Shown here: piece after piece, positions 1-18,324 of the stretch | Layout: the number at the start of each line of letters is the position of its first letter | How positions within the stretch are numbered: the first letter of the stretch is position 1 | Position numbers and translations under genes: made by a program | Assembly (NCBI GenBank): GCA_964387885.1 | Contig: CAYLYZ010000084.1 | Span: 1 to 25,964, forward strand | Source: an uncultured bacterium | GTDB taxonomy: Bacteria; Electryoneota; AABM5-125-24; Hatepunaeales; Hatepunaeaceae | Direction: 5' to 3' | DNA: 25,964 nucleotides | Notes under the pieces: model-generated | Seen by the model: only the letters and a program-made list of their open reading frames with translations | The model's database searches: none | What the model was told of the DNA's origin: nothing

Positions 1-1104
1 ATCAAAGATAGAGTAGCCGGTCTGTTAGTTGCAGATATCAGCGATCCCACTCAACCACGTGAAGTCGGGCAAGCCGAGCTTCCCCTGGATTGGGAGGATG
101 GTAAAATGATCATTAATGGCAATTACCTCTATGTCAATAATCCCGATAGCGGTCTTTATGTGTTCGATATCTCCGAACCTGAACAACCAGAATTTATTCA
201 GCTTCTGGACAATCTGGTCGGAGGAAGCTATCCTCTCCTGCATGGTGATTTAATGTTGATGTCGAACGATCACAGGTTCCTCGATATTATAGATGTCTCG
301 TCTCCTGAATCACCGGAATTAATATCCTCCTGCGATATCTGGCTTGAACCTGAGGGAATTGCAGCCATTGGGAACTATGTTTATGTTACAGAGCGTGAAG
401 AAGGAATACTTATCGTGGACATATCCGACCCAACTTTTCCGTGGGTAGTGAATTTTATACCACCCTTTGATTCACAACCTGAATACCTCATCATTGACGT
501 AGAGAACCAAATTGCAGCATGTTGGGATAATCAAAACGCCTATTTGATGGATGTATCCGATCCAGAGAATCCGGAATTCCTCAGTTCAGTACGTGCTTGG
601 TGGGGACAATTGAGGATTTCTAACGGTCACCTGATAACCTCAAATATCAATGGTTATCTCAGGACATATGATATTCGAAATCCACGAGAACCTGAGCAAA
701 CCGGATATCTTCGAACGGATTTGTATACATATGATGTCGACGTACAGGGATTTTACCTTTACGCAGCACACAGTAGGCAATTCTGGATTTATGATTGTCT
801 GGACGTTTTATCGGTAGACGAGGGCAAACGATACGCCCCGGACAGTAACTTCGTCAGCCTCTATCCTAATCCAGCCAATAGCGGAGCAACAATTATTTAC
901 CGATTATCTTCACCAGGAAATACCGGTATTTCGATTTATGATTTAAAAGGCAGTCTTGTTGACCAGATAATGTCAAACCAATATAACCCGGCAGGCGATT
1001 ACCGAATCCGGTGGAATACGCACGGAATTCCAAGTGGTTCTTACATAATTAAGATAGATGGTGCAGTCAATTCCCATCACAAGACCATATCAGTCGTGAA
1101 ATAA
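1..1104 (+). CDS. LVIVD-repeat beta-propeller protein with T9SS C-terminal sorting domain (5' end truncated by window edge)
   Basis: The reading frame is open from nt 1; the internal Met is at 106. It contains repeated (L/I)xVxD(I/V)SdPxxPE motifs typical of LVIVD repeats. The C-terminus YPNPANSGATIIYRL...SGSYIIKI matches the Por/T9SS C-terminal domain pattern. Confidence 0.7.
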   Translation: MKDRVAGLLVADISDPTQPREVGQAELPLDWEDGKMIINGNYLYVNNPDSGLYVFDISEPEQPEFIQLLDNLVGGSYPLLHGDLMLMSNDHRFLDIIDVSSPESPELISSCDIWLEPEGIAAIGNYVYVTEREEGILIVDISDPTFPWVVNFIPPFDSQPEYLIIDVENQIAACWDNQNAYLMDVSDPENPEFLSSVRAWWGQLRISNGHLITSNINGYLRTYDIRNPREPEQTGYLRTDLYTYDVDVQGFYLYAAHSRQFWIYDCLDVLSVDEGKRYAPDSNFVSLYPNPANSGATIIYRLSSPGNTGISIYDLKGSLVDQIMSNQYNPAGDYRIRWNTHGIPSGSYIIKIDGAVNSHHKTISVVK

Positions 1105-1120
1105 AACTTAAGAGCCTACA

Positions 1121-3265
1121 ATGAAAACGACCTTAATATTCAGCTTGATTTTGATTACAACACTTTCAGGATTTTCTCAAGATAGTTCCGGAGTACGAAT
1201 GGTTGGGCAGGCTTTTCCACAATGGGGAGAAACTTACGACATGGAACTAGCTGGGAACATCCTCTTCGCTGCAAATAGACGGTTAGATATAGTAGACGCA
1301 AGTGATCCAGGAAATCCGGAGTATCTTTGGTTCAGCAACCGATTGGGCTCCTGCTACAGAGTTGAGGTAGATGGTCCGAGAGCCTTTTTGGCAACTTCAT
1401 CTTATTCCCGTGGGCGTGATATGTTTATACTCGACATCTCTGATTTATCAAATCCAAGGGAATTAGGTGTTTATTCAGATGATCTATCGCTATACGAGAT
1501 GATTGTGAAGGGCAATATCGCTTATTTACGCTCGCGAGATCAAGTTCAAATTCTGGACGTGACCACTCCTGACGACATCCGAATGATCTCCACCATTGAC
1601 ATAACTGATGATATGATCACGATGGATGATGATGGTGAATACATATTTGGATGCACTGAACGCGAAGGCATAAGAGTCTTCGATGTTTCAGATCCATCCA
1701 ATCCACACCAGATAAATTTCTTTCCTCTCGATATGCCTGTCGAGGATATCTCATATGCGGATGACAGAATCTATTTAGCAAATTCAACGCACCGGAACTT
1801 CGGTGTGACGGTTTTGGACGTTCGCGATGTAATGAATATAGATACTCTGCGTCATGTTTTGACTGGCAATAGTCGACCACTTAAGGTGTCTGCAAGAGAT
1901 ACGATGCTATTTGTTAGCACCGAACATTGGATCTATACTTATAGTATCGCAGATATTGATAATCCATTCAGAATCGGTAACGAAAGTTGTGAGCCCATTC
2001 TCTTTAAAATGAACGATTCTCTTTTATTTGTGAGAACTGAAAAGGAAAAGCCACTTTCAATTTTCAACTATAGAAATCCAGATGAATTGGTCGAGGTTGG
2101 TGGTATGAACAATGCATATAATGTTGATTTGATCAAATTTGCCGGTGACCGTATGTATGTTGATGAGACAATTTTCGATATCTCACGTCCGTTAAATCCA
2201 AGAAAACTTGGAAGCTTTCCCATTAGTGGTGTCATCGATTACGAGATCAACGATTCGTTTTTTCATGTAATCATTGAGGATCGCTATAAAGTGTTTGATG
2301 TAGCTGATCCAGCAAATATAGAGTTGAGAGCGGTGTTTGGCCATACTGGTCAGGATTTAATATTGAATGGAGATTATACCTATATTTCGAGTGGCAGTTT
2401 AGAGGTTCTGGATGCATCAGATCTGGGCTTTATCAGATCTGTCAACTCTATAAGCTCGGAAGAGATGACTGGATCAGCTGGTAATATGATAATTCGAGGG
2501 AATTACCTTTACAGTGTTTCGAAAAATAGTTTCGGGATTCTTGATGTATCGGAACCAGAATCGCCTATGTTAACTGGTAGTTATGATCTCAGTCCCAGAT
2601 GGATGGAATTTATGACTCCCGAATTTGTCCTCTACGATGACTATGCTTACATCGCTGCAGAAAAAGCCTTTTATATTTTAGATATCACTGAATTAGATAA
2701 TCCAGTTCTGGTTAGTGACTCTTTGGAATATAGATGCCGGAAGATTATTAGAGATGGAGATCATCTTTTACTTTCAGGAGTCAGGTGGGATTACCAACGA
2801 CACAGTGAATACGGACTCCAAATTCTGAGCCTGGAAGATCCAACTCACCCGAACATTGCGGGTTTCTATCAAACGCCCGGATTGGCTGAGATGTCAGGGG
2901 TAAGGGATGGACTCTGCTACGTTGCTGATGGCTCCAGTATCGTGATTCTTGATTTTTCTGAAGCACTTTCCACCCCATTTGGTCATGAACCGGAGTTTCA
3001 GCCATCAAAATTCTTTCTGACTGCTTATCCCAATCCCTTTAACTCGACAACAACAATCAACTTCAACATGCCTGGTATTGAAAAGGCTGAGCTTCGAGTC
3101 TATGATCTTCAGGGAAGACTGGTTCATGAGCTTGTGAACTGCAGACTCGACGCCGGGGAACACAATGTCAGGTTTGACGCGTCCGGGTTAGTAAGTGGAG
3201 TTTATCTGATGAAATTGGAATGTGGGTCGGAAATTACTTCACATAAACATGTAGTCCTAAATTGA
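1121..3265 (+). CDS. Secreted LVIVD-repeat beta-propeller protein with T9SS C-terminal sorting domain
   Basis: 714 aa with an N-terminal signal peptide (MKTTLIFSLILITTLSGFSQ). There are many LDIVDASDPGNPE / ILDISDLSNPRE / VFDVSDPSNPHQ type repeats. The C-terminus YPNPFNSTTTINF...GVYLMKLE is a canonical T9SS C-terminal domain. Confidence 0.75.
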   Translation: MKTTLIFSLILITTLSGFSQDSSGVRMVGQAFPQWGETYDMELAGNILFAANRRLDIVDASDPGNPEYLWFSNRLGSCYRVEVDGPRAFLATSSYSRGRDMFILDISDLSNPRELGVYSDDLSLYEMIVKGNIAYLRSRDQVQILDVTTPDDIRMISTIDITDDMITMDDDGEYIFGCTEREGIRVFDVSDPSNPHQINFFPLDMPVEDISYADDRIYLANSTHRNFGVTVLDVRDVMNIDTLRHVLTGNSRPLKVSARDTMLFVSTEHWIYTYSIADIDNPFRIGNESCEPILFKMNDSLLFVRTEKEKPLSIFNYRNPDELVEVGGMNNAYNVDLIKFAGDRMYVDETIFDISRPLNPRKLGSFPISGVIDYEINDSFFHVIIEDRYKVFDVADPANIELRAVFGHTGQDLILNGDYTYISSGSLEVLDASDLGFIRSVNSISSEEMTGSAGNMIIRGNYLYSVSKNSFGILDVSEPESPMLTGSYDLSPRWMEFMTPEFVLYDDYAYIAAEKAFYILDITELDNPVLVSDSLEYRCRKIIRDGDHLLLSGVRWDYQRHSEYGLQILSLEDPTHPNIAGFYQTPGLAEMSGVRDGLCYVADGSSIVILDFSEALSTPFGHEPEFQPSKFFLTAYPNPFNSTTTINFNMPGIEKAELRVYDLQGRLVHELVNCRLDAGEHNVRFDASGLVSGVYLMKLECGSEITSHKHVVLN

Positions 3266-4993: not shown

Positions 4994-7453
4994 TTACCAT
5001 TCAAATCTTACCCCACCCACAAAGAATAATCCGAGCTGGTGAACCGGCTCTTTAGCATTTATTTCAGGTACATTCGGATCAATTGGTTGAGTAGGATATG
5101 TATAATCAGTAATATTAGCACGATCGAAAACATTCTGCGCTTCGAGAAAAACTATTATTGATCGTCCACCGGTGTACCATTTGCTATCCCACCTGATATC
5201 CAGCTTCGAATAAGCCGGATACCTCGCACTATTAGGAATATCGGATCTTTTCCAGGTATATTTGGATTCAGAATCGTTTTTTGACCAAATCTTCGGTGTA
5301 TAAGGTCTTCCTGATACATATCTGAACCGAGAAGATACTGTGAGTTCATCGCCACTTACGGGCAAAAGGAATGACCAGTAGCCGTACCAGTGCTTTTGGA
5401 ATTTTCGCACCGATAATCCACTGAAATTATATCCCAATACGATCGTTGCAACATCTCGATAATCATAATCTGCCGGATATGTTAGGTTATTAAGCACTTC
5501 GACTGAATCAACATCCTCATAACGGGGAGCAGTAGTTAAGGCTTTTGCAAAAGAATAAGCGGCAGTTCCATACCAGTTATCTGAGAGTTTTTGTTGGATA
5601 AATAGTTCTACTCCACGAGTTTCCTTATTCTTGAGTGAAAGATATTGAAAAGTTTTTTGAGTGCGATTCAAACTATTGGTCATCCATTGGAGGGAAAGGG
5701 GTAGACTGGAATAAAATTTCAGATATCCCTCAATGCTGATCCTGGTGGATTCTGTAAGTAAATAGGAAAATCCTCCAATGTAGTGATCTGCTCTTTTATG
5801 GGGCAATTCCCTGTTAGCCTCATGAGAGAGGTAATCTATTATTGACAGAGCCTGGTAATATCTCCCATAGGCAATCGAACAGGAAATTCGGGAATTTACT
5901 CTCCATTTGGCAGAAAGACGCGGTGCTAAAGTTACATCATCGGAGAATTCAAATCCATCAATCCTTAACCCTCCCAAAATCGAAAGACTTTCAATCGGTC
6001 TCCAACGATATTGAAGATATCCCCCATATTTCAGCGAAGTCTGCTTCGATTCAATACGCAACTCTTGTTTTTCATCATCCCCACCGTCCGCGGCATCAAT
6101 ACTTGTAACAATGTCATCTTCACTCAACTGCAGCCATACATCATGAGAATATGTAATTGGCTTAAGCGAAATTCCCGCGAATAATTGATCAACGTTCCTT
6201 GTATTTAGTGTCAGGTTAACGTGTACCTGATCGGTCGTTTCAGTGCTTCGTGCAAAAGCGTAAAGGTTGCTTATTCTTTCACCTACAACATTCTCATAGA
6301 CATCAAATAAATCATAGCTGCCGGAAATTTGACTCCGTCCAATAACAAGTTCCGTAAATCCCCTGTCCATCAGCATGCGCAAACGAGCACCAAGGGCTAC
6401 TGTATGATCTTTGGCATCGATTGTCTCTGCACCGCGTGACCAGGCACCTTCTTCCATGGCATCAATTTTAACCCAATCTTTTAAATAAAGGCCAAACACG
6501 GAAATGTTGGTTGTTGGTGAGGGAAACGAAGATATTTTAAACTGTGAGTCCCAGAAATAGGGTACTGCAGGTAATTCGAGCTGATCCTTAAGAATATCAA
6601 TATAACTCCTTCTGAACGACAACAAGTATGATCCGTTAGTTAATGGTATTCCACCTTCGAGATTTAATCCGACACTTGCAACGGAAGTCTCTAGCTGACC
6701 TCTGAAATTATCCTTATCTCCATCTCGGAGCTCTAAATCGAGTATACTTGATAATTTATCACCGTATTTTGCTGAAAATCCTCCGGTTGAAAATGTAACA
6801 TCCTCGAGAAATTCAATGTTAACAGCACTCATTGGACCACCCGAGGTTGTGGGATCGGGGAAGTGATTGATATTGTCAATTTCCAATCCATCAATAATTG
6901 TCAAATGTTCTGCAAAGCTCCCGCCTCGTACGATAATTTCATTTGTTAGATCATTCTGACTGAAAACACCTGGAATAGCCTGAATTGTTCTCAACACATC
7001 TTCGAAAGCTCCCGGAGCTCTCCTGACTTCTTCATAACTCAATGTTTGGGTGGAAGATGGTAGGTTAGGTTTATCCTGGAAATATCCACTTCTGACAGTA
7101 ACTTCCTTCCCTTTGATTACCGTTGGATCGAGATGAAACTCAAGTGTCACCACTCTACCAGCTGAAACTGAAACTTCTCCTCGCGACATACTTGCAAATC
7201 CTAATGCGCTGGCAGTAATATGATAGGTTCCCGGTTTGAAACCTTGAATGATAAACCGACCATCAAGATCAGATGCAGCGCCAATATCCGTCCCAGCCAC
7301 TACAATATTTGCCCCCGGGATGGGAGAAAGATTGGAAGAATCTAAAACTCTTCCCTTTACACTTCCGGGATTAATCTTTGCATGTACTGAACAACTGCAT
7401 GAAAAAACGACCACGCAGAAAATCGTTAACACGATCTTTTTGTAGCAAAACAT
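4994..7453 (-). CDS. TonB-dependent outer-membrane receptor with N-terminal carboxypeptidase-regulatory-like domain
   Basis: 819 aa with a signal peptide. It has a CarbopepD_reg-like segment (GRVLDSSNLSPIPGANIVVAGTD...GRF), a plug-like region (FSTGGFSAKYGD) and a C-terminal aromatic residue (..GVRFEW) typical of OM beta-barrels. Confidence 0.7.
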   Translation of the reverse strand: MFCYKKIVLTIFCVVVFSCSCSVHAKINPGSVKGRVLDSSNLSPIPGANIVVAGTDIGAASDLDGRFIIQGFKPGTYHITASALGFASMSRGEVSVSAGRVVTLEFHLDPTVIKGKEVTVRSGYFQDKPNLPSSTQTLSYEEVRRAPGAFEDVLRTIQAIPGVFSQNDLTNEIIVRGGSFAEHLTIIDGLEIDNINHFPDPTTSGGPMSAVNIEFLEDVTFSTGGFSAKYGDKLSSILDLELRDGDKDNFRGQLETSVASVGLNLEGGIPLTNGSYLLSFRRSYIDILKDQLELPAVPYFWDSQFKISSFPSPTTNISVFGLYLKDWVKIDAMEEGAWSRGAETIDAKDHTVALGARLRMLMDRGFTELVIGRSQISGSYDLFDVYENVVGERISNLYAFARSTETTDQVHVNLTLNTRNVDQLFAGISLKPITYSHDVWLQLSEDDIVTSIDAADGGDDEKQELRIESKQTSLKYGGYLQYRWRPIESLSILGGLRIDGFEFSDDVTLAPRLSAKWRVNSRISCSIAYGRYYQALSIIDYLSHEANRELPHKRADHYIGGFSYLLTESTRISIEGYLKFYSSLPLSLQWMTNSLNRTQKTFQYLSLKNKETRGVELFIQQKLSDNWYGTAAYSFAKALTTAPRYEDVDSVEVLNNLTYPADYDYRDVATIVLGYNFSGLSVRKFQKHWYGYWSFLLPVSGDELTVSSRFRYVSGRPYTPKIWSKNDSESKYTWKRSDIPNSARYPAYSKLDIRWDSKWYTGGRSIIVFLEAQNVFDRANITDYTYPTQPIDPNVPEINAKEPVHQLGLFFVGGVRFEW

Positions 7454-7557: not shown

Positions 7558-7627
7558 TTGACTGACATGTAATTATTGCTTACTTTGCACATATGTTATG
7601 TGATAATGGACATTTGTACACATTATG
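7558..7627 (+). promoter_or_regulatory. Putative promoter/operator region of the BMC operon: TTGACT -35-like, extended -10-like TGtGATAAT, and phased ACATnTGT palindromic motifs
   Basis: TTGACT is at 7558-7563 and TGTGATAAT at 7599-7607. ACATGT is at 7566, ACATATGT at 7589, ACATTTGT at 7610 and ACATTATG at 7620, spaced about 10 or about 21 bp apart. Confidence 0.3.
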
Positions 7628-8584
7628 CTAAAGACATCGGAAAAAACATCATCGCTTGTGGATGTAGCAAGGTTATACTACGAGCATGATTACAGTCAGC
7701 AGGACATTGCGAGAAAACTCGGGATTTCACGACCCAGTGTCTCGAGAATGCTGCAAAAGGCTCGAGAATTGGGCATAGTCCGAATTAAGATCTATGATCC
7801 TGAACAGCGAGGTTCGCATCAGGAAAAAGCTTTACAACAAATATACGGGCTCAAAAAGGTAATTCTCGTACCTAATGAGGACGCAACGGATCTAGTAATT
7901 AAGCAGAGGTTGGGATTTGTAGCGGCCAGATACCTTGACGAACTTCTTGAGGATGGTCTCACAGTTGGGGTTTCCTGGGGATCAACGATGCAGGAGGTTG
8001 TTAAGCACCTTCAGCACAGGACAATTCGCAACATGACGGTAGTTCAACTGAATGGTGGAATTTCGAGAGCAGAGTATAACACTCATGCAAGCGAGATTGC
8101 GCTGAAAATAGGAAAAAACTATCAGGCGATACCCTTTCTGTTGCCGTTACCGGCGATAGTCGACCAGGTACGAGTCAGAAGAGCGATTATTACCGATAAA
8201 AACATTGCCAAAACACTAAATCTTGCAAGAGAAGCTCAAATTGCAATGTATACCGTTGGAGCTTTCAGCTTCAACTCTGTGCTTGTAAAAGCTGATTACT
8301 TCGAGACTGAGGAAGTTGAAGAACTTTTAACCGACAAGGCAGTAGGTGATATATGTTCGCGGATAATTGATGAAAATGGGAACATATGTAACTCGAAGCT
8401 CAATGCCCGGACAATTGGTATAAGTCTAAGTGATTTAAAAAAGAAGAAATACGCTATTGCAGTCGCAGGTGGCATGGAAAAGCTCAACGCAATCAGAGCT
8501 GGATTGCGAGGTAATTATTTTAATGTACTTATCACAGATGAGTGGGTTGCTTCAAAGCTATTAGAAAACGCTGACATTTCCTGA
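7625..8584 (+). CDS. SorC/DeoR-family sugar-phosphate-binding transcriptional regulator
   Basis: N-terminal HTH ([41 protein letters not shown]) is typical of SorC/CggR/B. subtilis DeoR. The C-terminal region is a sugar-binding domain. The gene leads the BMC operon. Confidence 0.8.
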
Positions 8585-8594
8585 AATAAAGAAT

Positions 8595-10004
8595 ATGAAT
8601 TCATCTGAAAAACAAATTATCGCAATAGGTTCCGATCATGGTGGTTACCAACTTAAGGAAAAACTAAAAGAATACCTGACTCGCAATGGATTCAATGTAA
8701 ATGACTGCGGAACTTTCAGCACTGAGGATGTTGACTATCCGAAATTCGCATATCTGACCGCGAAGGAAGTTTCAGATGGGAACGCACATTTCGGCATAAT
8801 CGTCGATGGTGCAGGAATTGGTTCGGCTATGACAGCAAATAAAGTTGGGGGTATACGAGCTGCACTCTGCTACGATGTTTCATCAGCAAACAACGCACGT
8901 GAACATAATAATGCCAACGTTTTAACACTGGGCTCCGGATTAATAGGGGAAAACCTGGCCAAACAGATTTGCGATAAATTCCTGTCAGTAGACTGTACCG
9001 TTGACCGACACCTTAAACGGGCAAGTATGATTGATGAACTTGACAAAGGTATAATCCCGTTTTCTGCAATTAATGCTTCAAAGACCAGCAATAAAAAGGA
9101 CAATCACCCGATGGAATTGTCAAGTCAGGATCTAACTCGTATTGCAGATCGAATACGAGAAATGCTCTCAACCGATGTTGCAGAACCTAAAAAACATCAG
9201 AGCGCTTGTGGTGATGCAAACTGTAATAATTGTGGTCATTGTGCTGAAAAAACTCCGGATACAATAAGAAAATATCTTGACCTTGGTGCGGGAAGGATTT
9301 CTCATAAATCAGGTTCAGGTTACATTCCAAAGGATATTGCTGGAATTATCGACCATACAATACTCAAACCGGATGCGACCGAAGATGACATTATCACACT
9401 TTGTAACGAAGCTCGCGAACATGGATTTGCTTCGGTTTGTGTGAATCCTACCTTTGTGTCTCTGGCAAGGAGAGAACTTGTTGGTACTGACGTTCAGGTT
9501 TGTACGGTAGTAGGTTTCCCTCTTGGTGCGCACATGTCAGAGATTAAAAGTATGGAAACCCGACGTGCTATTCGTGAAGGTGCACGAGAAATCGACATGG
9601 TTATAAATATCGGAGCCCTGAAAAGCGGGAAAGATGATCTCGTTTACGACGACATTCGCAAAGTGGTGGATGCATGCGAGGATGGAGGCGCTCTAAGCAA
9701 GATAATTATTGAAGCTGCACTTTTAACAGATGATGAAAAGATCCGAGCCTGTCAACTCTGCAAACGAGCTCGTGCCAATTATGTTAAAACCTCTACCGGA
9801 TTCGCTCCCGGTGGCGCAACAGAAAAGGATGTCGCCCTGATGAGCAGTGTGGTGAAAGACTCCGGGATAGGTGTTAAAGCTGCCGGTGGGATAAAAGATT
9901 ATAAAGATTTTGAAAAGATGGTTTCGGCAGGTGCCACGAGAATTGGTGCCAGTGCCGGGATAAAGATTGTTCAGGGAGCCAGGGAAGTTACGGTCTCGAA
10001 TTGA
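8595..10004 (+). CDS. Fusion protein: ribose-5-phosphate isomerase B (RpiB/LacAB) N-domain + deoxyribose-phosphate aldolase (DeoC/DERA) C-domain
   Basis: Residues 1-150 carry [13 protein letters not shown]...[18 protein letters not shown] (RpiB fold). Residues about 245-469 carry [12 protein letters not shown]...CVNP...YVKTSTGF, the DERA Schiff-base Lys motif. A 50-aa linker with an amphipathic helix and a C-x4-C-x2-C-x2-C motif joins them. Confidence 0.8.
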
Positions 10005-10028
10005 ATGCTGTGTGTATATCACCTGTAG

Positions 10029-10048
10029 GGGCGAATAATCATTCGCCC
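10029..10048. repeat. GC-rich palindromic element copy (GGGCGAAT-aatc-ATTCGCCC)
   Basis: A perfect 8-bp stem. It belongs to an approximately 26-nt element, TGTAGGGGCGAATAATCATTCGCCC. Confidence 0.5.
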
Positions 10049-10102
10049 TTAGTAGCAAGTGAACAGCATTTAGGTCATGTCCTACAAAGTAAGATTTGTT
10101 TT

Positions 10103-10129
10103 GGGCGAATAATTATTCGCCCCTACGAC
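10103..10129. repeat. Inverted copy of the same palindromic element (GGGCGAATAATTATTCGCCCCTACGA)
   Basis: A 20-nt perfect palindrome. Its reverse complement is near-identical to the element at 10024-10048, forming an inverted doublet about 55 nt apart. Confidence 0.5.
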
Positions 10130-10163
10130 AGTAAAATCTTTTATATAAAGGGGAGGTAAACTC

Positions 10164-10787
10164 TTGGTAGACCTTCGCGCATACGTTTTTTTAGATAGTA
10201 TTCAACCACAGTACGCGGCATATCTCGGTACAGTGGCAAAAGGTTTTTTGCCTATTGCAGGCATGGCATCGCTGTATGTCGAGATTTCACCTGGCATCGA
10301 GATCAACAGGATTACAGATATTGCTCTGAAATCGACGAACGTGACTCCCGGGATGCAAATCGTTGAGCGACTCTATGGAATGCTTGAAATTCATTCTAAT
10401 TCGCAGGCAGATGTTCGGCAAGCGGGACAAGCAATTCTCGAAGCCCTTGATCTTAAGGAAGAGGACAGGTGGAAACCAAAGATCTACTCACAGCAGGTCA
10501 TACGACGAGTGGACGACCACCAGACACAGCTAATTAACCGGATGCGGTTTGGAAATATGATTATCCCTGGTGAAACGTTATTTGTCATGGAAGTTGCTCC
10601 CGCTGCGTATGCGGCTCTTGCAGCAAATGAAGCAGAAAAAGCTGCTGAAATCAACATCCTCGATGTACGTGCATTTGGAAGTTTTGGCAGAGTCTACCTT
10701 GGTGGTGAAGAACGCGATATTGATGTCGGTTGGCGTGCTGCCGTTAAGGCAATTGAAGAAGTTACAGGAAAAGAACAATCTAAATAA
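10164..10787 (+). CDS. BMC shell protein, tandem BMC-domain (BMC-T) with 33-aa N-terminal extension
   Basis: Two canonical BMC domains are present: [25 protein letters not shown] resembles PduA ALGMVET...ADAMVKSANV, and [29 protein letters not shown]...G...[13 protein letters not shown] is the second. TTG start with a GGGAGG SD 7 nt upstream; an alternative ATG at 10263 would begin directly at domain 1. Confidence 0.55.
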
Positions 10788-10801
10788 ATTTTGGAGAAGA
10801 A

Positions 10802-11116
10802 ATGGCAGAAGCACTGGGAATGTTGGAAACACGCAGTTTTCCTGCGGTAGTCGAAGCCGCTGATGCTATGGTAAAAGCTGCAAAAGTTGAATTAGTATCA
10901 TACGAAAAAACAGGTGGCGGGTATGTCACTGCTATTATCCGTGGTGATGTAGCTGCAGTTAAAGCTGCCTGCGATGCCGGTCGTGCGGGAGCTGCGAGAG
11001 TAGGTGAAATCGTTGCTGTTCATATCATTGCCCGTCCGCATTCTAATGTTGACTTTATCATGCCGCTTGGTCGTGAGGAAGATGGCAAGGCGGGAATGGA
11101 GCGTCTTAGTAAATAG
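10802..11116 (+). CDS. BMC-H hexameric shell protein (PduA/EutM/CcmK family)
   Basis: [60 protein letters not shown] is a textbook BMC domain (PF00936). Confidence 0.9.
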
Positions 11117-11135
11117 TCGCTCTTAAGGAGGTATT

Positions 11136-11435
11136 ATGGTTCTCGCCAAAGTTGTCGGGACATTGGTTTCGACACAAAAAGAAGAGAGTCTCGAGGGGCT
11201 GAAATTCCTGATACTGCGCAATGTTGAGATCAATGGCAAAGTCGGCAAAGGTTTTGTAGTCGCAGCTGATGGTGTGGGAGCTGGTATAGGAGAAATGGTT
11301 TTGTACGCAAGTGGCAGCTCAGCCCGTCAAACCAAATTGACCGAAAACCGCCCCTGTGACTCAATTGTTATGGCAATTGTTGATAATTGGGAAGTTGACG
11401 GGAAGTTAAAGTACAAGAAGGGAGTTAACGATTAA
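11136..11435 (+). CDS. BMC-P pentameric vertex protein (EutN/CcmL/PduN family), paralog 1
   Basis: MVLAKVVGTLVSTQKEESLEGLKFLILRNV...GFVVAADGVGAGIGEMVLYASGSSAR is the EutN/CcmL signature. A strong AAGGAGG SD precedes it. Confidence 0.85.
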   Translation: MVLAKVVGTLVSTQKEESLEGLKFLILRNVEINGKVGKGFVVAADGVGAGIGEMVLYASGSSARQTKLTENRPCDSIVMAIVDNWEVDGKLKYKKGVND

Positions 11436-11486
11436 GAGTGATTATTACATATCACTCGAATTGTATGGGCACGATGCTCGTGCCCA

Positions 11487-11505
11487 TTACTTCTTTGTTC
11501 AAGGT
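11487..11505. repeat. GC-rich hairpin GGGCACG-atgct-CGTGCCC (member of GGGCR..YGCCC family)
   Basis: 7-bp GC stem followed by ATTAC, lying between the BMC-P gene and the aldehyde dehydrogenase gene. Confidence 0.5.
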
Positions 11506-11540
11506 TTCGACTTTTAATGATATCGTTATCAATCAAACAG

Positions 11541-11559
11541 GGGCACGGGCACCGTGCCC
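11541..11559. repeat. GC-rich hairpin GGGCACGG-gca-CCGTGCCC (second copy of pair)
   Basis: 8-bp stem followed by TTAC, 35 nt downstream of the previous hairpin. Confidence 0.5.
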
Positions 11560-11603
11560 TTACGCTTTAACAGCATCTAATAATTATTAATTATGGAAGA
11601 GCT

Positions 11604-13055
11604 GTGTCCCGGTTAACAGACGAACAAGTAAATATCATTGCTGCTGAAGTCATAAAGCAACTTAAACAACCTGAATCCGGAAATTCTTCAGATAGAAGCA
11701 AAACAGCTTCTGCTCCATTAACATCGTTCGGAGCAGGAATCTTTGCCGATATTGATTCAGCAGTTAAGGCTGCACGTCTGGCTCACGAAAGGCTTGTGAG
11801 TATGACACTTGAGCAACGAAAAAAAATAATTTCGAACGTTCGCAAGCGAATGCTCGAGGCAACTGAAGAATTGTCTCGAATGGCGCTCGAAGAGACCGGC
11901 CTTGGTAGGTTCGAAGATAAAATTCAGAAAAACAGACTTGTTACGCTGAAAACTCCGGGAACAGAAATTCTTCAGCCAACAGCATGGTCGGGTGACAGAG
12001 GACTTACATTGATGGAATTGGCTCCTTATGGTGTTATAGGAGCAATAACTCCTGTTACCAACCCAACATCGACGATCATATGCAATTCAATTGGCATGGT
12101 TGCTGCTGGAAACGCAGTGGTATTTAACGTTCATCCAAGTGCTAAGAATACCAGCATCAGGAATATTATCCTGCTCAATGAAGCAATAACTGAAGTTGGT
12201 GGACCGGAGAATGTCATTACATGCATATCAGAGCCTACAGTAGAGAGTGCTACTGAGCTGATGCACCATCACGGTGTCAGGTTGTTAGTCGTAACAGGTG
12301 GTGGTGCAGTAGTTAAGGCAGCTATGAACAGCGGGAAACGGGCTATTTGTGCAGGACCCGGTAATCCTCCAGCTGTCGTTGATGAAACCGCAGATATCGA
12401 TCTTGCTGCAAAAAGCATTGTTGCAGGTGCTTCTCTCGATAACAACATTATCTGTGTACTCGAGAAGACCGTCATAGCGGTTGATTCTATCTCCGATTCA
12501 CTCATTGAAGCATTTCAAAGACACAATGCGGTATTGCTGACACAAGAGCAGTTCAACCAATTAGAACCGATTATCTTCTCAAAGACTAACGGACCGCGCA
12601 AATATGCAGTGGTGGACAAAGATTTGATCGGAAAGAACATACAGGTGATTCTTTCGAAAATCGGAATGACTGTACCTGATAATATCCGACTTGCGGTGGT
12701 TGAGGTAGATGCGGATCATCCCCTGGTCTGGACTGAACAGATGATGCCGGTAATGCCATTGGTCAGGGTATCTGATGTAGATAAAGCAATTGAGCTTGCC
12801 AGGGAATCCGAACATGGTTACCAACATACAACAGTTATGCACTCGACCAACATCAACAACCTTTCAAAAATGGCGCGAGAGATGAATTGCAGTATATTTG
12901 TCAAGAATGCACCCGGACCTGCCGGCCTGGGATATAACGGCGAAGGTTATTGTTCATTCTCAATTGCGAGCCCAACCGGTGAAGGATTGACGAATGCGCG
13001 GAGTTTTTCCCGCGAGAGGCGTTGTACGTTAGTTGATAATTTCAGAATTGTATGA
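11604..13055 (+). CDS. CoA-acylating aldehyde dehydrogenase (PduP/EutE-like BMC aldehyde dehydrogenase) with N-terminal encapsulation peptide
   Basis: GTG start. ELAPYGVIGAITPVTNPTSTIICNSIGMVAAGNAVVFNVHPSA and the catalytic Cys motif LDNNIICVLEKTV match PduP/EutE. The N-terminal amphipathic helix TDEQVNIIAAEVIKQLKQ plus a Ser/Ala linker looks like an encapsulation peptide. Confidence 0.85.
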   Translation: MSRLTDEQVNIIAAEVIKQLKQPESGNSSDRSKTASAPLTSFGAGIFADIDSAVKAARLAHERLVSMTLEQRKKIISNVRKRMLEATEELSRMALEETGLGRFEDKIQKNRLVTLKTPGTEILQPTAWSGDRGLTLMELAPYGVIGAITPVTNPTSTIICNSIGMVAAGNAVVFNVHPSAKNTSIRNIILLNEAITEVGGPENVITCISEPTVESATELMHHHGVRLLVVTGGGAVVKAAMNSGKRAICAGPGNPPAVVDETADIDLAAKSIVAGASLDNNIICVLEKTVIAVDSISDSLIEAFQRHNAVLLTQEQFNQLEPIIFSKTNGPRKYAVVDKDLIGKNIQVILSKIGMTVPDNIRLAVVEVDADHPLVWTEQMMPVMPLVRVSDVDKAIELARESEHGYQHTTVMHSTNINNLSKMAREMNCSIFVKNAPGPAGLGYNGEGYCSFSIASPTGEGLTNARSFSRERRCTLVDNFRIV

Positions 13056-13663
13056 TTAGAAGATATCCTGCAATAGCCCTGCTTGAATTATCCGGAATCT
13101 CCCGTGGTGTCGTAACAAGCGATGCAATGGTCAAACGAGCTCCGATAACGATGATAAAGTCGGGGACGATCTCGGAAGGTAAGTATCTTATCCTCGTCGG
13201 GGGAAGTGTCGCTTCAGTCGAGGAAGCTTTTGCTGCCGGAATGTCAATCGGGGGAAATTCAATTATCGATCATGTAATCCTGCCGGATGTTCATACCCAG
13301 GTTCACGATTCGATACTCGGAACAAAACGTAAACCAGCTGCTGATGCATTGGGATTAATTGAAACGAGCACTGTAGCTGCAACTATCAGATCGATGGATG
13401 CTGCGATCAAAAGTACAAAGATAGATATTGTCGAATTGAGGTTGGGTGATAACCTTGGCGGAAAAGCATTTGCTATATTCTCCGGCAAGGTCGAAGATGT
13501 ACAAACTGGAATGGACATTATTCATGAAGTATCAGGCGGGAAAGAGTATTTGACTGCAGAAGAGATTATCCCGAGATTGGCTGATGTGATAGGCAAACAA
13601 CTCGAATCAGGCAGCAGATTTGCTGAAATCAGGGCCAGCATATTAGAAGACGGGGAGCTCTGA
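13052..13663 (+). CDS. BMC-T tandem-domain shell protein (PduT-like)
   Basis: Two BMC domains: IALLELSGISRGVVTSDAMVKRAPITMI... and ALGLIETSTVAATIRSMDAAIKSTKIDIV... It overlaps the aldehyde dehydrogenase stop by 4 nt (ATGA). Confidence 0.75.
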   Translation: MIRRYPAIALLELSGISRGVVTSDAMVKRAPITMIKSGTISEGKYLILVGGSVASVEEAFAAGMSIGGNSIIDHVILPDVHTQVHDSILGTKRKPAADALGLIETSTVAATIRSMDAAIKSTKIDIVELRLGDNLGGKAFAIFSGKVEDVQTGMDIIHEVSGGKEYLTAEEIIPRLADVIGKQLESGSRFAEIRASILEDGEL

Positions 13664-13664
13664 T

Positions 13665-13952
13665 ATGATGTTGGGAAGGGTATTCGGTACTGTCACGGTC
13701 AGTGTAGTTTACGAGGGATTGGAGGAGACTCCGATGCTGCTCGTGCAGCCTCTCGATAAACGCCAACAGCCTGAAGGTGATTTCGTTGTCGCAGCCGATC
13801 CGACACGAATGGCAGGACCGGGCGAGCTGATATACTACGAAGCCAGCCGCGAAGCCGCCTTACTGTGTGATCCCTGGTTCGTCCCTGTAGATCATGCGAT
13901 AGTTGGGATAGTCGACGACGTCCACCTCTCAAACCACCCGGACGAGCAATGA
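13665..13952 (+). CDS. BMC-P vertex protein (EutN/CcmL family), paralog 2
   Basis: MMLGRVFGTVTVSVVYEGLEETPMLLVQPLD...DFVVAADPTRMAGPGELIYYE is an EutN-like fold signature. Confidence 0.75.
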   Translation: MMLGRVFGTVTVSVVYEGLEETPMLLVQPLDKRQQPEGDFVVAADPTRMAGPGELIYYEASREAALLCDPWFVPVDHAIVGIVDDVHLSNHPDEQ

Positions 13953-14209
13953 AAATCGGACGCGTCAGCGGAACTCTGCACAGCACTATCAACCATCCTT
14001 TTTACGACAACAGGAAAATCCTCGTCGTAGACTTGCTAAGCCCGGACAAAACCGAAACCGGAAAATACTTGATCGCATTAGATGTTGTTGATGCCGGAGT
14101 AGGGGAGACGGTGCTGATCGTTGATGAAGGCAACTCCGCCCGGCAGGTTTTTGATGCGAAGAATGGCCCTGTCCGGTCTGTGATTGTAGGAATTGTAGAC
14201 GAATATTAG
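13949..14209 (+). CDS. BMC-P vertex protein (EutN/CcmL family), paralog 3
   Basis: MKIGRVSGTLHSTINHPFYDNRKILVVDLLSPDK...YLIALDVVDAGVGETVLIVDEGNSARQ. There is an ATGA overlap with the previous gene. Confidence 0.8.
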   Translation: MKIGRVSGTLHSTINHPFYDNRKILVVDLLSPDKTETGKYLIALDVVDAGVGETVLIVDEGNSARQVFDAKNGPVRSVIVGIVDEY

Positions 14210-14417: not shown

Positions 14418-14507
14418 TGAATTTTATCAAGGATCTTCTTATAATAAACAATCCTGCAACAGTTTTTTTTTAACAAATCTCTCAAACTTTTGATTTCGGA
14501 GGCAAAG

Positions 14508-17500
14508 GTGAAGCACATCATCTTCCTTTTTGTGATTGTTCTCTTTTTAGCAACCTCATCATACGCGCTGGATGAAGTGAAGATATGTCCTGCAGAACAT
14601 CATGCGGGTGATATGTTCGGGACAGCAGTTGCTGTTGATGGAGACTATATGGTTGTCGGTGCCATAGGATATGATGTCGGTGAAGATCAAAATGTCGGAT
14701 CAGCTTATGTGTTCCACTGGGATGGTGATGAGTGGATCGAACAAACCAGAATTCAGCTTGATGATCGATCGGGTAGTGATAATTTTGGTGCAGCAGTCGA
14801 TATAGCAGGTGATTATATCATTGTCGGAGCTCCTAACGAAGATCCTGGAGGTGAAGATAATGCGGGTTCAGCCTGGATCTACATGAGGAATGGTCAGAAT
14901 TGGGATTTCCAGGCTCAGATTGTTTCCCGTAATCCATTTCCCAACGAAAATTTTGGTGCAGCGGTTGTGATAAATGGGAATATGGCTGTAGTCGGTTCCG
15001 CAGGTAGCGATACTTCTTGTGTTTATGCTCGCGATGGTGCAAATTGGGACCATACGTACCGAACATTATCGCAACAGGTGGGAGCAGGTTATGGCGATTT
15101 TATTAGCATGCATGGAAATAGTTACGTAATTTCCGGATATAATTTAAGTGTTTCAGGGCAAGCTGGTGCAGGTCAAGCATTTGTAAACATTTTTGATGGT
15201 CAGAACCTTGCCCTACAAGGAATAATAAATTCTTCTACTCCTACAACGAATGGACATTTTGGATGGGATTGTTCAATATTCGGTGATATACTTCTGGTCG
15301 GCGCGTCAGGTGACTCAATAGTTGATGTATATCAGGGAGCAGCATATATTTTCGAAAGAAATGCCGGAAACTGGAGTCGAACTGACAAACTCTTTTCGGA
15401 TGTTGAACCTGGTGATGGTTACGGAAAAGGTGTTGCAATCAACAACGATTATGCTGTAATAGGCGCACCTGATAATGATGCTCAAGAAATTGCAAATTCT
15501 GGCATTGTCTTTCTATTTGAATCCGATGAAGGCAACTGGAATGAATTGGGATCAATTGTTCCGGATGATGCTCACGAAAACATGCATTTCGGCCAAAACC
15601 TCGCGTTAAGTGACACTCTGATCTTCAGCGGATGCCCTGATGCAACAGTCGAAGGATCTGCCGGTGCCGGTGCAGTTTATATGTTCGTTGTGAATTCACC
15701 ACCAGCAGTTACAGTGATTGATCCCAATGGTGGTGAAGTGCTTGTAGAGAATACCGAATTCGAAATAGAGTGGGAAGTCGAATCGATGCAGGACATTGTG
15801 CAAAACACAATTGAGTATTCAGCTGATAATGGCCAGAACTGGTCACAGATTGGAACCACTGATGATGATGATTACGATTTCGAATGGACTATTCCTGACA
15901 CATTCTCAACGAGTTGCCTTATAAGAGTAACAGCTGAAACTGATGACCAGGAAGGATCAGATGTTTCAAATGCAACTTTCACGATTGTGACAATACCTGA
16001 TGTAGTTGTTTCTGTTCCCGATGGAGGTGAACAATACCAAACCGACGAAGAGGTCACAATCGAATGGGATGTGACAAATGAACCGGACATTATTGAAAAC
16101 GTTGTAGAATATTCCACAGATGGCGGAGATACCTGGATAAATATAGGAGCAACCCAGGATGAAGATTTTGATATCGTGTGGATAATTCCTGACATATACA
16201 GTCTTTATACAGTTGTTAGAGTGAGATCAACCAATGAATACGATGTTGAAGGTTATGATATTTCCGATGATTGGTTCATAATTGTACCGACATCGGCAAG
16301 TTATACCTTCTACCGCGGCTGGACTTTCTTCAGTCTGCCTTATACCCCGGATGACAACAGTGTCGAAACTCTGATCGAAGCTGGTATTATCGACCATATG
16401 CCCTGGGATTTGTTCGGATTTGACATGTCCACTGCTTACTACCGTCCTGAAGAACTGTTTGTAGGCAATGGTTACATGCTCACAATGTATCAGGATTCGT
16501 TGGAAATGTCGTTTGATTGCGAAGCCGGAATTGAACAGGTAGACTGGGAACTGGATCTGGGATGGAATCTGATTGGAGTACCGTTCGGTCAACCCCTTAC
16601 GGTAGAAAACCAAACATTGAACCATGAAGGTGAGTTATATACTATTGCAAATGCTGCGGACTCACTTTTATGCGTCCCAATCTTTTATGACTGGAGTGCC
16701 CAGGATAGTGCCTACCTGATTGCTGATGTTCTTGATGTTTGGAAGAGTTATTACTTCGTAGCACTTGACACAATGGTGCTTAATCTGTTCCCCGCACCTC
16801 CCGGACCTGTACCAACTGCAATTGATGACGTTCCGGGCACAATCGAGGCATGGCAATTGAATATCATTGCCGAAATGGATGGAAAACGCGATCCTCTGGC
16901 TGCCATCGGTGCCAATGCTTATGCTACGGACGGCTTTAATCCCGCATTCGACTATCCCGAACCTCCAAACGGCAACATCAGCCAGGTAGTTAATACCTAT
17001 TTCGAAGAAGAAGAATGGATACCAAACTTCGCCACTACTTTCTGCCGTGACATCCGCGAGCAAATGGTTGAAGAAGAAGACGTATGGACGATGTTCGTTT
17101 CGACAATCCGTCCTGGTGATGTCACGCTGACATGGGATGATATTTTCGACACCACTCCGGCAGGTTACGAATTTGAGATTAACGATCCAGCGGCGGATGT
17201 GACAATAAATCCAAAGGCTGAAGCTTCATACACGTTCTACAACGAAGGCACAAGTGAAATCGTAATCAGAGCTTTCGCTTCGCTGAATGTCAAGAATAGA
17301 GTCGAGATACCGAGCACCCACAACCTGCTAACAGCCTATCCAAACCCATTTAATTCAACTTTAAGCATCACCATGGATCTACAGTCAAGTTCTAACGTTA
17401 CGCTTAGCGTTTTCGACCTGAACGGAAAGCTGGTAGATACCGTGCTGAACGGCTCAATGGAAGCTGGCACTAACGAACTGAAATGGGATGCTAAAGGCAT

Positions 17501-17576
17501 TACAAATGGTGTTTATATCATCAGATTGCAGACCAGGACTCAAGAAGCGACTCAGAAGGTTCTTTTGATGAAGTAA
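14508..17576 (+). CDS. Secreted FG-GAP (integrin-alpha-like) beta-propeller protein with two tandem Ig-like repeats and T9SS C-terminal sorting domain
   Basis: GTG at 14508 lies 5 nt after a GGAGG SD and gives a clean signal peptide, KHIIFLFVIVLFLATSSYA; the ORF track's TTG at 14490 is an alternative. It has repeated FGxAVxxxGDYxVVGAP motifs. Two ~100-aa repeats of the form GGExL/YxxxExxIEWxV...IEYSxDxGxxWxxIG lie at about 15700-16290. The C-terminus is YPNPFNSTLSITM...GVYIIRLQ. Confidence 0.7.
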   Translation: MKHIIFLFVIVLFLATSSYALDEVKICPAEHHAGDMFGTAVAVDGDYMVVGAIGYDVGEDQNVGSAYVFHWDGDEWIEQTRIQLDDRSGSDNFGAAVDIAGDYIIVGAPNEDPGGEDNAGSAWIYMRNGQNWDFQAQIVSRNPFPNENFGAAVVINGNMAVVGSAGSDTSCVYARDGANWDHTYRTLSQQVGAGYGDFISMHGNSYVISGYNLSVSGQAGAGQAFVNIFDGQNLALQGIINSSTPTTNGHFGWDCSIFGDILLVGASGDSIVDVYQGAAYIFERNAGNWSRTDKLFSDVEPGDGYGKGVAINNDYAVIGAPDNDAQEIANSGIVFLFESDEGNWNELGSIVPDDAHENMHFGQNLALSDTLIFSGCPDATVEGSAGAGAVYMFVVNSPPAVTVIDPNGGEVLVENTEFEIEWEVESMQDIVQNTIEYSADNGQNWSQIGTTDDDDYDFEWTIPDTFSTSCLIRVTAETDDQEGSDVSNATFTIVTIPDVVVSVPDGGEQYQTDEEVTIEWDVTNEPDIIENVVEYSTDGGDTWINIGATQDEDFDIVWIIPDIYSLYTVVRVRSTNEYDVEGYDISDDWFIIVPTSASYTFYRGWTFFSLPYTPDDNSVETLIEAGIIDHMPWDLFGFDMSTAYYRPEELFVGNGYMLTMYQDSLEMSFDCEAGIEQVDWELDLGWNLIGVPFGQPLTVENQTLNHEGELYTIANAADSLLCVPIFYDWSAQDSAYLIADVLDVWKSYYFVALDTMVLNLFPAPPGPVPTAIDDVPGTIEAWQLNIIAEMDGKRDPLAAIGANAYATDGFNPAFDYPEPPNGNISQVVNTYFEEEEWIPNFATTFCRDIREQMVEEEDVWTMFVSTIRPGDVTLTWDDIFDTTPAGYEFEINDPAADVTINPKAEASYTFYNEGTSEIVIRAFASLNVKNRVEIPSTHNLLTAYPNPFNSTLSITMDLQSSSNVTLSVFDLNGKLVDTVLNGSMEAGTNELKWDAKGITNGVYIIRLQTRTQEATQKVLLMK

Positions 17577-17802: not shown

Positions 17803-18324
17803 CTAAAAGTCATCAACAATATTTAATCTATCTATCGGCAATGATAATATCTCATTATAAAATCCCTTTTTACTATTCTCAATAAACCAACCTGCAGAAC
17901 AAAACGGGTAATCCAGGGGATTTTCAACCAAACCATGTTTTACCGGATTGTAGATCACGTATTTCATTCTGGCAAAATAGCTTTTTTCATTGCTAATGCA
18001 AGTATCCCAGTATTGATACCAAATTCTCCTGCCCGGACAGTAATCTATCTTATTTACCAATCGCGAAGCCTGAGAATGTATTCTTTGAATTGTGTTCTTC
18101 AGAGGTTTAGAATCTTCAGTGGAACATGCAATCAGATGATAATGATTTGCAAACACTGCCCAGGCAAGTATTTGCCAGTTATATTCATCCAAAACGTCCA
18201 ATATAGTTTTAGTCAGGATTGATAACTTTTTTTCTGTGTTAAAGAATTTTGCTTTCTGGTAGGTACTTGCAGTGATTATATAAAACGAGTTGTGTTGAAA
18301 AATGTGTAAAGGTCTGTGAGACAT
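17803..18324 (-). CDS. REP-associated tyrosine transposase (RAYT; IS200/IS605-like HUH Y1 transposase)
   Basis: 173 aa with the HUH motif (ANHYHLI) and a C-terminal catalytic Tyr motif, YVIYNPVKHGLV. It is flanked by inverted REP copies. Confidence 0.75.
   Translation of the reverse strand: MSHRPLHIFQHNSFYIITASTYQKAKFFNTEKKLSILTKTILDVLDEYNWQILAWAVFANHYHLIACSTEDSKPLKNTIQRIHSQASRLVNKIDYCPGRRIWYQYWDTCISNEKSYFARMKYVIYNPVKHGLVENPLDYPFCSAGWFIENSKKGFYNEILSLPIDRLNIVDDF

Follow-up and report, generated by a model that had tools for sequence, protein, structure and literature searches.

What does an RpiB-like domain contribute when it is fused to a deoxyribose-phosphate aldolase (DERA) inside a bacterial microcompartment (BMC) operon and no longer carries the catalytic cysteine of RpiB? 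This question is raised by a 25,964-nt stretch of DNA, called the window here, from contig CAYLYZ010000084.1 of an uncultured bacterium of the Electryoneota, in which one open reading frame (ORF) encodes such a fusion. An earlier reading of the DNA made without database searches (the sequence-only reading) had described it as an RpiB-DERA fusion in a microcompartment operon, and this description is confirmed by the BMC gene neighbours and by the domain matches. In Pfam, the protein matches LacAB_rpiB at aa 9-146 (E 3e-49) and DeoC (PF01791) at aa 252-457; in NCBIfam, it scores above the cut-offs of both the rpiB equivalog (TIGR01120, aa 9-149, 146.6 bits against 138.65) and the deoC equivalog (aa 248-460, 287 bits against 117). 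By its gene content, the fusion is predicted to be encoded in a compact microcompartment operon of the SPU3 type. We assign a probability of about 0.6 to the overall explanation in which the protein is an SPU3-type signature enzyme whose DERA is active, whose inter-domain helix would serve as an internal encapsulation peptide, whose RpiB-like domain would act as a scaffold, and whose four-cysteine (Cys4) motif may form a metal-binding knuckle.

Parts of this picture are known. An RPI-DERA chimera has been reported in 20 SPU3 loci (Dwyer, Sutter and Kerfeld 2024, PMC11585597), and all SPU RPIs were found to have Asp in place of E. coli Cys66 while keeping His99 (PMC11585597). The N-terminal extension of DERA lies between the domains of the chimera, and the helix in this extension was proposed as an encapsulation peptide (PMC11585597). 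Three of the four points made by the sequence-only reading, namely the chimera, the exchange of Cys66 for Asp and the helix as an encapsulation peptide, are already published. New here are the delimitation of an inter-domain segment of ~97 aa, the presence of the helix in all 13 species-level fusions, an invariant pocket with fixed Asp, Ala and Ser, and a widespread Cys motif, as well as an apparent resemblance of the helix to the N-terminal encapsulation peptide of the acylating aldehyde dehydrogenase (AldDH) of the operon.

The identical protein is found on nine marine metagenome contigs, with the same neighbours where the contig is longer. Its nearest species-level match, at 62% identity, is from a metagenome-assembled genome of Candidatus Neomarinimicrobiota. 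Many seemingly full-length matches in the genome scan were separate, adjacent RPI and DERA genes and were discarded as fusions, leaving 13 true fusions among the species-representative genomes. These come from Neomarinimicrobiota, Planctomycetaceae, Krumholzibacteriota, Woeseiaceae, Elusimicrobia, Thermoanaerobaculia, Opitutales and Lentisphaerae, and all 13 are adjoined by genes for BMC-H and BMC-P. A second set was made up of 120 close fusion homologues with 59-80% identity.

The aldolase half of the fusion retains the DERA catalytic set. Asp334 (nt 9594-9596), the Schiff-base Lys398 (nt 9786-9788) and Lys428 (nt 9876-9878) align with Asp102, Lys167 and Lys201 of E. coli DERA, and all three are invariant in the homologue alignments. 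In the E. coli sequence used for this mapping, the three catalytic residues land on their published numbers. DERAs in the PDB match the fusion down to E 7e-83, and we infer that the C-terminal DERA is probably active. The DERA of the SPU6 system stays soluble and active when its extension is removed (PMC11585597).

The two domains had been thought to be joined by a linker of ~50 aa, which is too short: the inter-domain segment runs from aa ~151 to 247 (nt 9045-9335), or ~97 aa. Rather than a neutral linker, this segment comprises a variable spacer of ~22 aa and DERA's own N-terminal extension of ~75 aa, the latter forming its C-terminal two thirds. Ordinary DERAs from Streptococcus, Bacillus, Listeria and Haemophilus are without this extension and start 10-35 residues before the IDHT motif. 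The string singled out earlier as a helix covers aa 177-193 (nt 9123-9173). Its amphipathic character is upheld by the hydrophobic moment, which reaches 0.69 at aa 174-192 against a protein mean of 0.26 ± 0.15. The segment is also confidently predicted as helical rather than disordered, as AlphaFold run on a deeper, 143-sequence alignment of the extension plus DERA placed a helix at aa 177-192 with a predicted local distance difference test (pLDDT) score of ~91; in the full-length model, the helix scored 53-64 and the whole extension was of low confidence. With the deeper alignment, short helices were also predicted at aa 216-229. Residues D179, I183, A184 and R186 of the main helix are conserved, and the stretches on either side are of low confidence, poorly conserved and rich in indels (Table 1).

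The helix is kept in 13/13 species-level fusions, including those without the Cys module. In L015, L017, L020 and L021 (Thermoanaerobaculia, Opitutales and Lentisphaerae), the entire Cys/G-R module is gone and the helix runs nearly straight into DERA; these four proteins are a natural deletion series for the function of that module. In unfused DERA relatives, the helix lies at the extreme N-terminus, the usual terminal position of an encapsulation peptide, and it is internal in the fusion as a result of the gene fusion. The helix and the AldDH N-termini of sister loci share the pattern L-[ST]-x-x-[EDQ]-[IV]-x-x-I-A-x-R-[IV], and when a profile hidden Markov model (HMM) of the helix was searched against 6,723 locus ORFs, the best non-self matches were AldDH N-termini (E 9e-4, 0.036 and 0.31). 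A word-indexed search with the linker alone gave no match. The proposed likeness to an encapsulation peptide is thus well founded in that the helix is amphipathic, occurs in every true fusion and is N-terminal in unfused relatives, in line with the role proposed in PMC11585597. In combination with the experiments in print, this makes a role in encapsulation or core condensation the best-supported reading of the helix.

In the RpiB-like domain, Asp71 (GAT, nt 8805-8807) indeed occupies the position of the catalytic Cys66, as had been suggested by eye. This was established by phmmer alignments to RpiB structures from C. thermocellum (3HE8/3PH3), T. maritima (1O1X) and E. coli (1NN4) and to 3S5P, the best of which are gapless at E 5e-35 to 2e-29 with ~45-55% of aligned positions identical. 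Ala73 aligns with E. coli Thr68, so that the proton-transfer position (Thr68/Ser71) is not preserved. Ser77 aligns with E. coli Ile72, at the position of Glu75 in M. tuberculosis RpiB. The domain has neither catalytic base of RpiB, Cys66 of the E. coli type or Glu75 of the actinobacterial type. The remaining pocket is retained, with Asp14/His15, His104/Asn105 and Arg138/Arg142 equivalent to E. coli Asp9/His10, His99/Asn100 and Arg133/Arg137. Among the close fusions, Asp71 is present in 118/120, Ala73 in 119/120 and G74-I75-G76-S77 in 120/120, and the invariant pocket residues are D14, H15, Y48, G74-S77, N82, K83, R102, H104, N105, R138 and R142. The Asp/Ala/Ser triad also recurs in 45 RPI-like ORFs, fused or unfused, from many phyla (85 microcompartment loci; three more ORFs did not fit the search pattern).

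Such a pattern indicates that the RpiB-like pocket is under strong purifying selection despite the loss of two defining catalytic features, which counts against simple decay. Because of the exchanges of Cys66 for Asp and Thr68 for Ala, the domain is most likely not a ribose-5-phosphate isomerase, and its invariant phosphate and sugar pocket suggests a sugar-phosphate-binding, oligomerising partner instead. The only SPU RPI tested, from the Chloroflexi SPU6 system, carries the same Asp; this tetramer showed negligible activity as a ribose-5-phosphate isomerase and binds the DERA dimer in a 1:1 complex (PMC11585597). With the loss of the Thr68 partner, this makes doubtful the earlier description of the fusion as a bifunctional enzyme. 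Ring-opening or channelling by the RpiB-like domain to feed DERA is likewise disfavoured, as complex formation in SPU6 brought no gain in DERA kinetics (PMC11585597). Unfused SPU RPIs carry their own N-terminal encapsulation peptide, whereas the RpiB-like domain of the window begins only 7 residues after the Met and therefore has none.

The Cys4 motif lies C-terminal to the helix in the DERA extension. The string quoted by the sequence-only reading spans aa 204-216 (nt 9204-9242), with a CxxCxxC and a fourth Cys in the form C205...C210-x2-C213-x2-C216. When this Cys-rich protein is shuffled, four Cys fall within 12 residues 2.9% of the time, so that the motif alone is only mildly unusual and its significance rests on conservation in relatives. 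Among the close fusions, 23/120 have C-x4-C-x2-C-x2-C (22, like the window protein, with no further Cys downstream, and the other with one), ~55/120 have C-x5-C-x-C-x2-C and two to four more Cys downstream (GCxC...C-IDH), and ~36/120 have only 0-2 Cys. The 23 members of this window-type subgroup share 58-100% pairwise identity; all have the four Cys along with G214, A217 and R225, while the x positions differ among them. An extension profile searched against 1.84 billion representative proteins gave 57 matches; those inspected were DERAs or short DERA-extension fragments, apart from ankyrin-type repeat proteins, which matched through a short 'PEIIRTLVELGAD' stretch and were rejected as false positives. 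Full-length matches had three architectures, helix-Cys4-DERA, RpiB-helix-Cys4-DERA and helix-flavoprotein (PF02441)-Cys4-DERA, and it follows that the Cys module travels with DERA and that the helix is separable from it by an inserted domain.

For a less biased sample, the 120 nearest relatives of one unfused SPU DERA were taken, a ranking driven mainly by the aldolase core. In this sample, the extension is 55 aa or longer in 115/120, and 97 of these 115 have at least four module Cys, mostly as C-x(6-9)-C-x2-C-x2-C. In a combined alignment of 143 diverse SPU DERAs, unfused, RpiB-fused or flavoprotein-fused, C205 is conserved in 124/143, C210 or C211 in 137/143, C213 in 130/143, G214 in 131/143, C216 in 131/143, and G231 and R234 each in 143/143. 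Other lineages space their Cys as C-x2-C-x3-C-x3-C or C-x3-C-x4-C-x3-C. The number of Cys in the 13 species-level fusions is 4, 3, 3, 5, 6, 3, 2, 0, 2, 0, 0, 0 and 0, and a Cys-less fusion (P0019) sits in the same microcompartment operon. The suggestion of a metal site is credible in that the motif is widely conserved, but ~30% of close fusions and 5/13 species-level fusions have lost it or keep it only in degraded form. The distribution suggests that the Cys motif is ancestral in SPU DERAs, has repeatedly been lost and, given these losses, is dispensable for the fusion and for association with a microcompartment. Cysteines in the DERA extension are not mentioned in the main text of PMC11585597 or PMC12747264, and the conservation of Cys4 is apparently an undescribed detail of SPU DERAs.

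Together, these features can be arranged into a scheme. Deoxyribose 5-phosphate would enter the shell and be cleaved by DERA into glyceraldehyde 3-phosphate plus acetaldehyde, and the co-encoded AldDH, tagged with its own encapsulation peptide, would oxidise the acetaldehyde to acetyl-CoA within the shell. In the fusion, an RpiB-like gene has been joined to the front of the N-terminal extension found in all SPU DERAs. Its RpiB-like domain may provide oligomerisation and sugar-phosphate binding, and linking RpiB tetramers to DERA dimers could yield a multivalent, core-forming network. The internal helix would co-condense the fusion with AldDH and dock this cargo to the shell, and the Cys4 motif would be a small metal-binding knuckle steadying the DERA-proximal extension, for which structural zinc and a [4Fe-4S] cluster are both possible.

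Several observations weigh against the scheme as a whole. The helix HMM produced only one significant AldDH match (E 9e-4) and missed the AldDH of the window itself. The Cys module has a pLDDT of 45-61 even with the deeper alignment, and hence no confident fold, and its absence from 5/13 fusions means that a purely structural role must be replaceable. Finally, the strictly invariant pocket with its Asp/Ala/Ser triad suits an active enzyme no less than a scaffold. It is from this last point that the main rival to the scaffold draws its strength: the RpiB-like domain may be a re-tooled aldose-ketose isomerase that uses Asp71 as base and works not on ribose 5-phosphate but on another sugar phosphate made or used in the compartment, such as that of a triose, a tetrose or a rare pentose or hexose, and the protein would then be truly bifunctional. 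Invariance of the phosphate- and ring-binding residues and the triad over 120 fusions and 45 RPI-like ORFs is the pattern of a functioning site, the domain exceeds the score cut-off of the rpiB equivalog, the window operon has no triose-phosphate isomerase gene, and a carboxylate base is known to work in the RpiB fold (M. tuberculosis Glu75, cited in PMC11585597). We nevertheless consider such an isomerase rather unlikely, in view of the replacement of the proton-shuttle partner Thr68 by Ala, the negligible ribose-5-phosphate isomerase activity of the SPU6 RPI with the same Asp, DERA kinetics that its complex left unimproved, and the opinion of the authors of PMC11585597 that an isomerase has no obvious place in the pathway. 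A more distant alternative concerns the helix, which might only support the structure or oligomerisation of DERA, or passively link the domains, with encapsulation achieved through other contacts. The helix is longer than a typical encapsulation peptide and internal rather than terminal (PMC11585597), and its HMM likeness to the AldDH peptides is weak at most loci. Against this stand its N-terminal place in unfused SPU DERAs and absence from non-BMC DERAs, the low-confidence and poorly conserved spacers on both its sides, and its survival in the four fusions that have otherwise lost the extension. Deletion of the extension abolishes the aggregation typical of encapsulation peptides (PMC11585597), and similar inter-domain helices brought cargo into shells experimentally in a related system (PMC12747264). 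A purely structural or passive helix is on this evidence improbable.

For the Cys4 motif, the competing proposal replaces structural zinc by a [4Fe-4S] cluster, which would serve redox chemistry, electron transfer or oxygen sensing in the core. The dominant form of the motif, C-x(4-9)-C-x2-C-G-x-C-x4-P, resembles the ferredoxin motif CxxCGxCxxxCP, and in single-cluster ferredoxins the fourth position is likewise not Cys. The spacing C-x2-C-x3-C-x3-C of other lineages is another Fe-S-like one, and in flavoprotein-DERA fusions the motif lies directly C-terminal of a domain of the flavin mononucleotide (FMN) type, with at least three Cys kept in 50/50 of those sampled. Extension fragments of 6/10 relatives gave Fer4, Fer4_13 and Fer4_15 matches (E 0.01-0.1), although all of these are below the gathering scores and the extension segment of the window matches no Pfam family. 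The extension profile found nothing below E 0.5 among PDB sequences; ferredoxin-type subunits at E 2-9 in that search were not counted as evidence. Medium-chain alcohol dehydrogenases bind their structural zinc through the mirror-image spacing C-x2-C-x2-C-x7-C, and the Cys4 motif has been lost in many fusions. Neither BMC-T protein of the operon (10164-10787 and 13052-13663) has a single Cys, and the shell therefore lacks an Fe-S pore of the PduT type that could act as partner. As Cys4 and the CPGK pore motif also show no association across 56 loci, a pairing of Cys4 with a PduT-like pore was rejected here. Binding of a [4Fe-4S] cluster by the motif is unlikely as judged from its sequence, and we regard as somewhat doubtful the redox or sensing role set against structural zinc.

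The positions of these features and of the neighbouring genes are collected in Table 1.

Table 1. Features of the RpiB-DERA fusion and its operon, in nt of the window.
Feature	Position	Strand	Evidence or remark
ORF for RpiB-like/DERA fusion, 469 aa, signature enzyme of the microcompartment	8595..10004	+	Pfam and NCBIfam
RpiB-family domain (PF02502), aa 8-150	8616..9044	+	Pfam, NCBIfam; AlphaFold pLDDT 89-97; gapless alignments to RpiB structures
Altered catalytic loop D71-G-A73-G-I-G-S77	8805..8825	+	alignment to RpiB structures
His104-Asn105, kept as in E. coli (His99-Asn100)	8904..8909	+	invariant in 87-sequence alignment
Variable, indel-rich spacer, aa 151-173, 3' of RpiB domain	9045..9113	+	low conservation, gaps; pLDDT <50 at aa 157-175 (full-length model)
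Amphipathic helix, aa 174-192, candidate internal encapsulation peptide	9114..9170	+	hydrophobic moment, AlphaFold, conservation
Second variable spacer, aa 193-204	9171..9206	+	pLDDT <50 at aa 195-203 (deeper alignment)
Cys4 motif C205-x4-C210-x2-C213-G-x-C216, candidate metal site (Zn or Fe-S)	9207..9242	+	conservation in SPU DERAs
Conserved DERA-proximal part of extension, aa 217-247 (P221, R225, G231, R234, P245, D247)	9243..9335	+	alignment
DERA TIM-barrel core, aa 248-460	9336..9974	+	NCBIfam deoC equivalog, PDB DERA matches
SorC/DeoR-type sugar-binding regulator	7625..8584	+	directly upstream of fusion; same position in sister loci
CsoS1D-like BMC-T(dp) shell protein	10164..10787	+	CsoS1D_N domain
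BMC-H shell hexamer protein	10802..11116	+	
BMC-P pentamer protein, first of three	11136..11435	+	
Acylating aldehyde dehydrogenase (AldDH)	11604..13055	+	GTG start
N-terminal encapsulation peptide of AldDH, LTDEQVNIIAAEVIKQL	11613-11663	+	hydrophobic pattern mirrors fusion helix
Tandem-domain BMC-T(s) shell protein	13052..13663	+	
Two further BMC-P genes (13665-13952 and 13949-14209)	13665..14209	+	

The microcompartment operon (7625-14209), in which the fusion is the second gene after the regulator, is unusually minimal. No gene for a phosphotransacylase (PTAC), alcohol dehydrogenase (AlcDH), PduS/MNdh, triose-phosphate isomerase (TPI), class II aldolase, phosphopentomutase or nucleoside phosphorylase was found in the 26-kb window, and an Rfam scan of the window gave no match. 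In the AldDH, the encapsulation peptide LTDEQVNIIAAEVIKQL is followed by a low-complexity linker of ~25 aa. Sister loci at ~62-63% identity (L004 and L005) have the same gene order and, in addition, a PGM/PMM-family mutase that is a candidate phosphopentomutase, a pyrimidine-nucleoside phosphorylase and a class II aldolase; this gene content supports a feed from deoxynucleosides to deoxyribose 5-phosphate. A gap of 160 nt separates the fusion gene from the BMC-T(dp) gene, whose start is ambiguous, either TTG at 10164 (207 aa) or a later codon (184 aa), the one annotated on the identical contig L001. The operon is flanked by large secreted proteins with Por_Secre_tail sorting domains of the type IX secretion system (T9SS) at 106-3265 and 14490-17576, the latter an FG-GAP protein. 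An ORF for an IS200-like Y1 transposase (17803-18324, minus strand) lies just downstream of the operon and the FG-GAP protein, and a TonB-dependent receptor is encoded at 4994-7453 (minus strand). The T9SS proteins and the receptor agree with a Marinimicrobia-like host of the FCB group.

The closest described counterpart is the SPU3 chimera, for example that of Verrucomicrobia bacterium ADurb.Bin018, which has the same order of an RpiB without its own peptide, then the extension, then DERA, and shares Asp at the Cys66 position. The SPU3 loci also resemble the window in their AldDH, CsoS1D-like BMC-T(dp), three BMC-P genes and the pairing of PF01791 with PF02502; the CsoS1D-like protein has been tied to SPU3 loci (PMC8217296). 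The window protein differs in belonging to another lineage and in its locus, which is without PTAC, TPI, AlcDH, class II aldolase and nucleoside-salvage genes. The Chloroflexi SPU6 system is similar in the ~70-aa extension of its DERA (a helix and a low-confidence segment), the conserved D/K/K set and, in its RPI, an Asp at the Cys66 position and a preserved His99. In contrast to the window, its DERA and RPI are separate genes, and the RPI has its own N-terminal encapsulation peptide with a ~75-aa linker. Chloroflexi relatives space their Cys as C-x3-C-x4-C-x3-C or have only 2 Cys (L016 and L039).

Flavoprotein (PF02441)-DERA fusions, including those of Hodarchaeales, keep the Cys4 motif, the conserved G/R segment and an amphipathic encapsulation-type helix like that of the window. 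Their partner domain lies between helix and Cys4, while the RpiB-like domain of the window fusion precedes the helix. The former arrangement was seen in P0138, P0146, P0156, P0177 and ~50 relatives, and the main text of neither PMC11585597 nor PMC12747264 takes up the juxtaposition of an FMN-type domain and Cys4. In a 2025 preprint on Hodarchaeales compartments, flavoprotein-DERA fusions and encapsulation peptides predicted at terminal or inter-domain positions were described (PMC12747264). GFP-tagged enzymes with these peptides were recruited to shells while peptide-deleted variants were not, and the inter-domain peptides of the Flav+DERA fusion drew GFP cargo into shells (PMC12747264). Classical encapsulation peptides, as in PduP, PduD and metabolosome AldDHs, are amphipathic helices of ~17-19 residues with poorly conserved linkers, as in the window; they differ from the window helix, which is internal and followed by a conserved Cys-rich segment. 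The fold of the RpiB-like domain is that of canonical RpiB (E. coli RpiB/AlsB, T. maritima, C. thermocellum), M. tuberculosis RpiB and LacA. LacA has Asp at the same position and depends on the Cys of LacB (PMC11585597), whereas the window encodes no Cys-bearing partner.

SPU compartments are among the commonest bacterial microcompartments, are thought to recycle deoxyribose derived from DNA, and have lately been reported in Asgard archaea. The window is a minimal, Marinimicrobia-type example of the published RPI-DERA chimera and leaves the basic picture of the system unchanged. What the survey sharpens is the question of whether the Asp-bearing RPI is a dead scaffold or a re-tooled enzyme, and that of the role of the conserved Cys4 module in the DERA extension. 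If the module were to bind an Fe-S cluster, the signature enzyme of a very widespread type of microcompartment would carry an unrecognised redox cofactor, which could help to recycle NAD+ or let redox state or oxygen govern how the core assembles. Both this module and the pocket with its invariant Asp/Ala/Ser deserve experimental study as parts of a known system rather than a new one.

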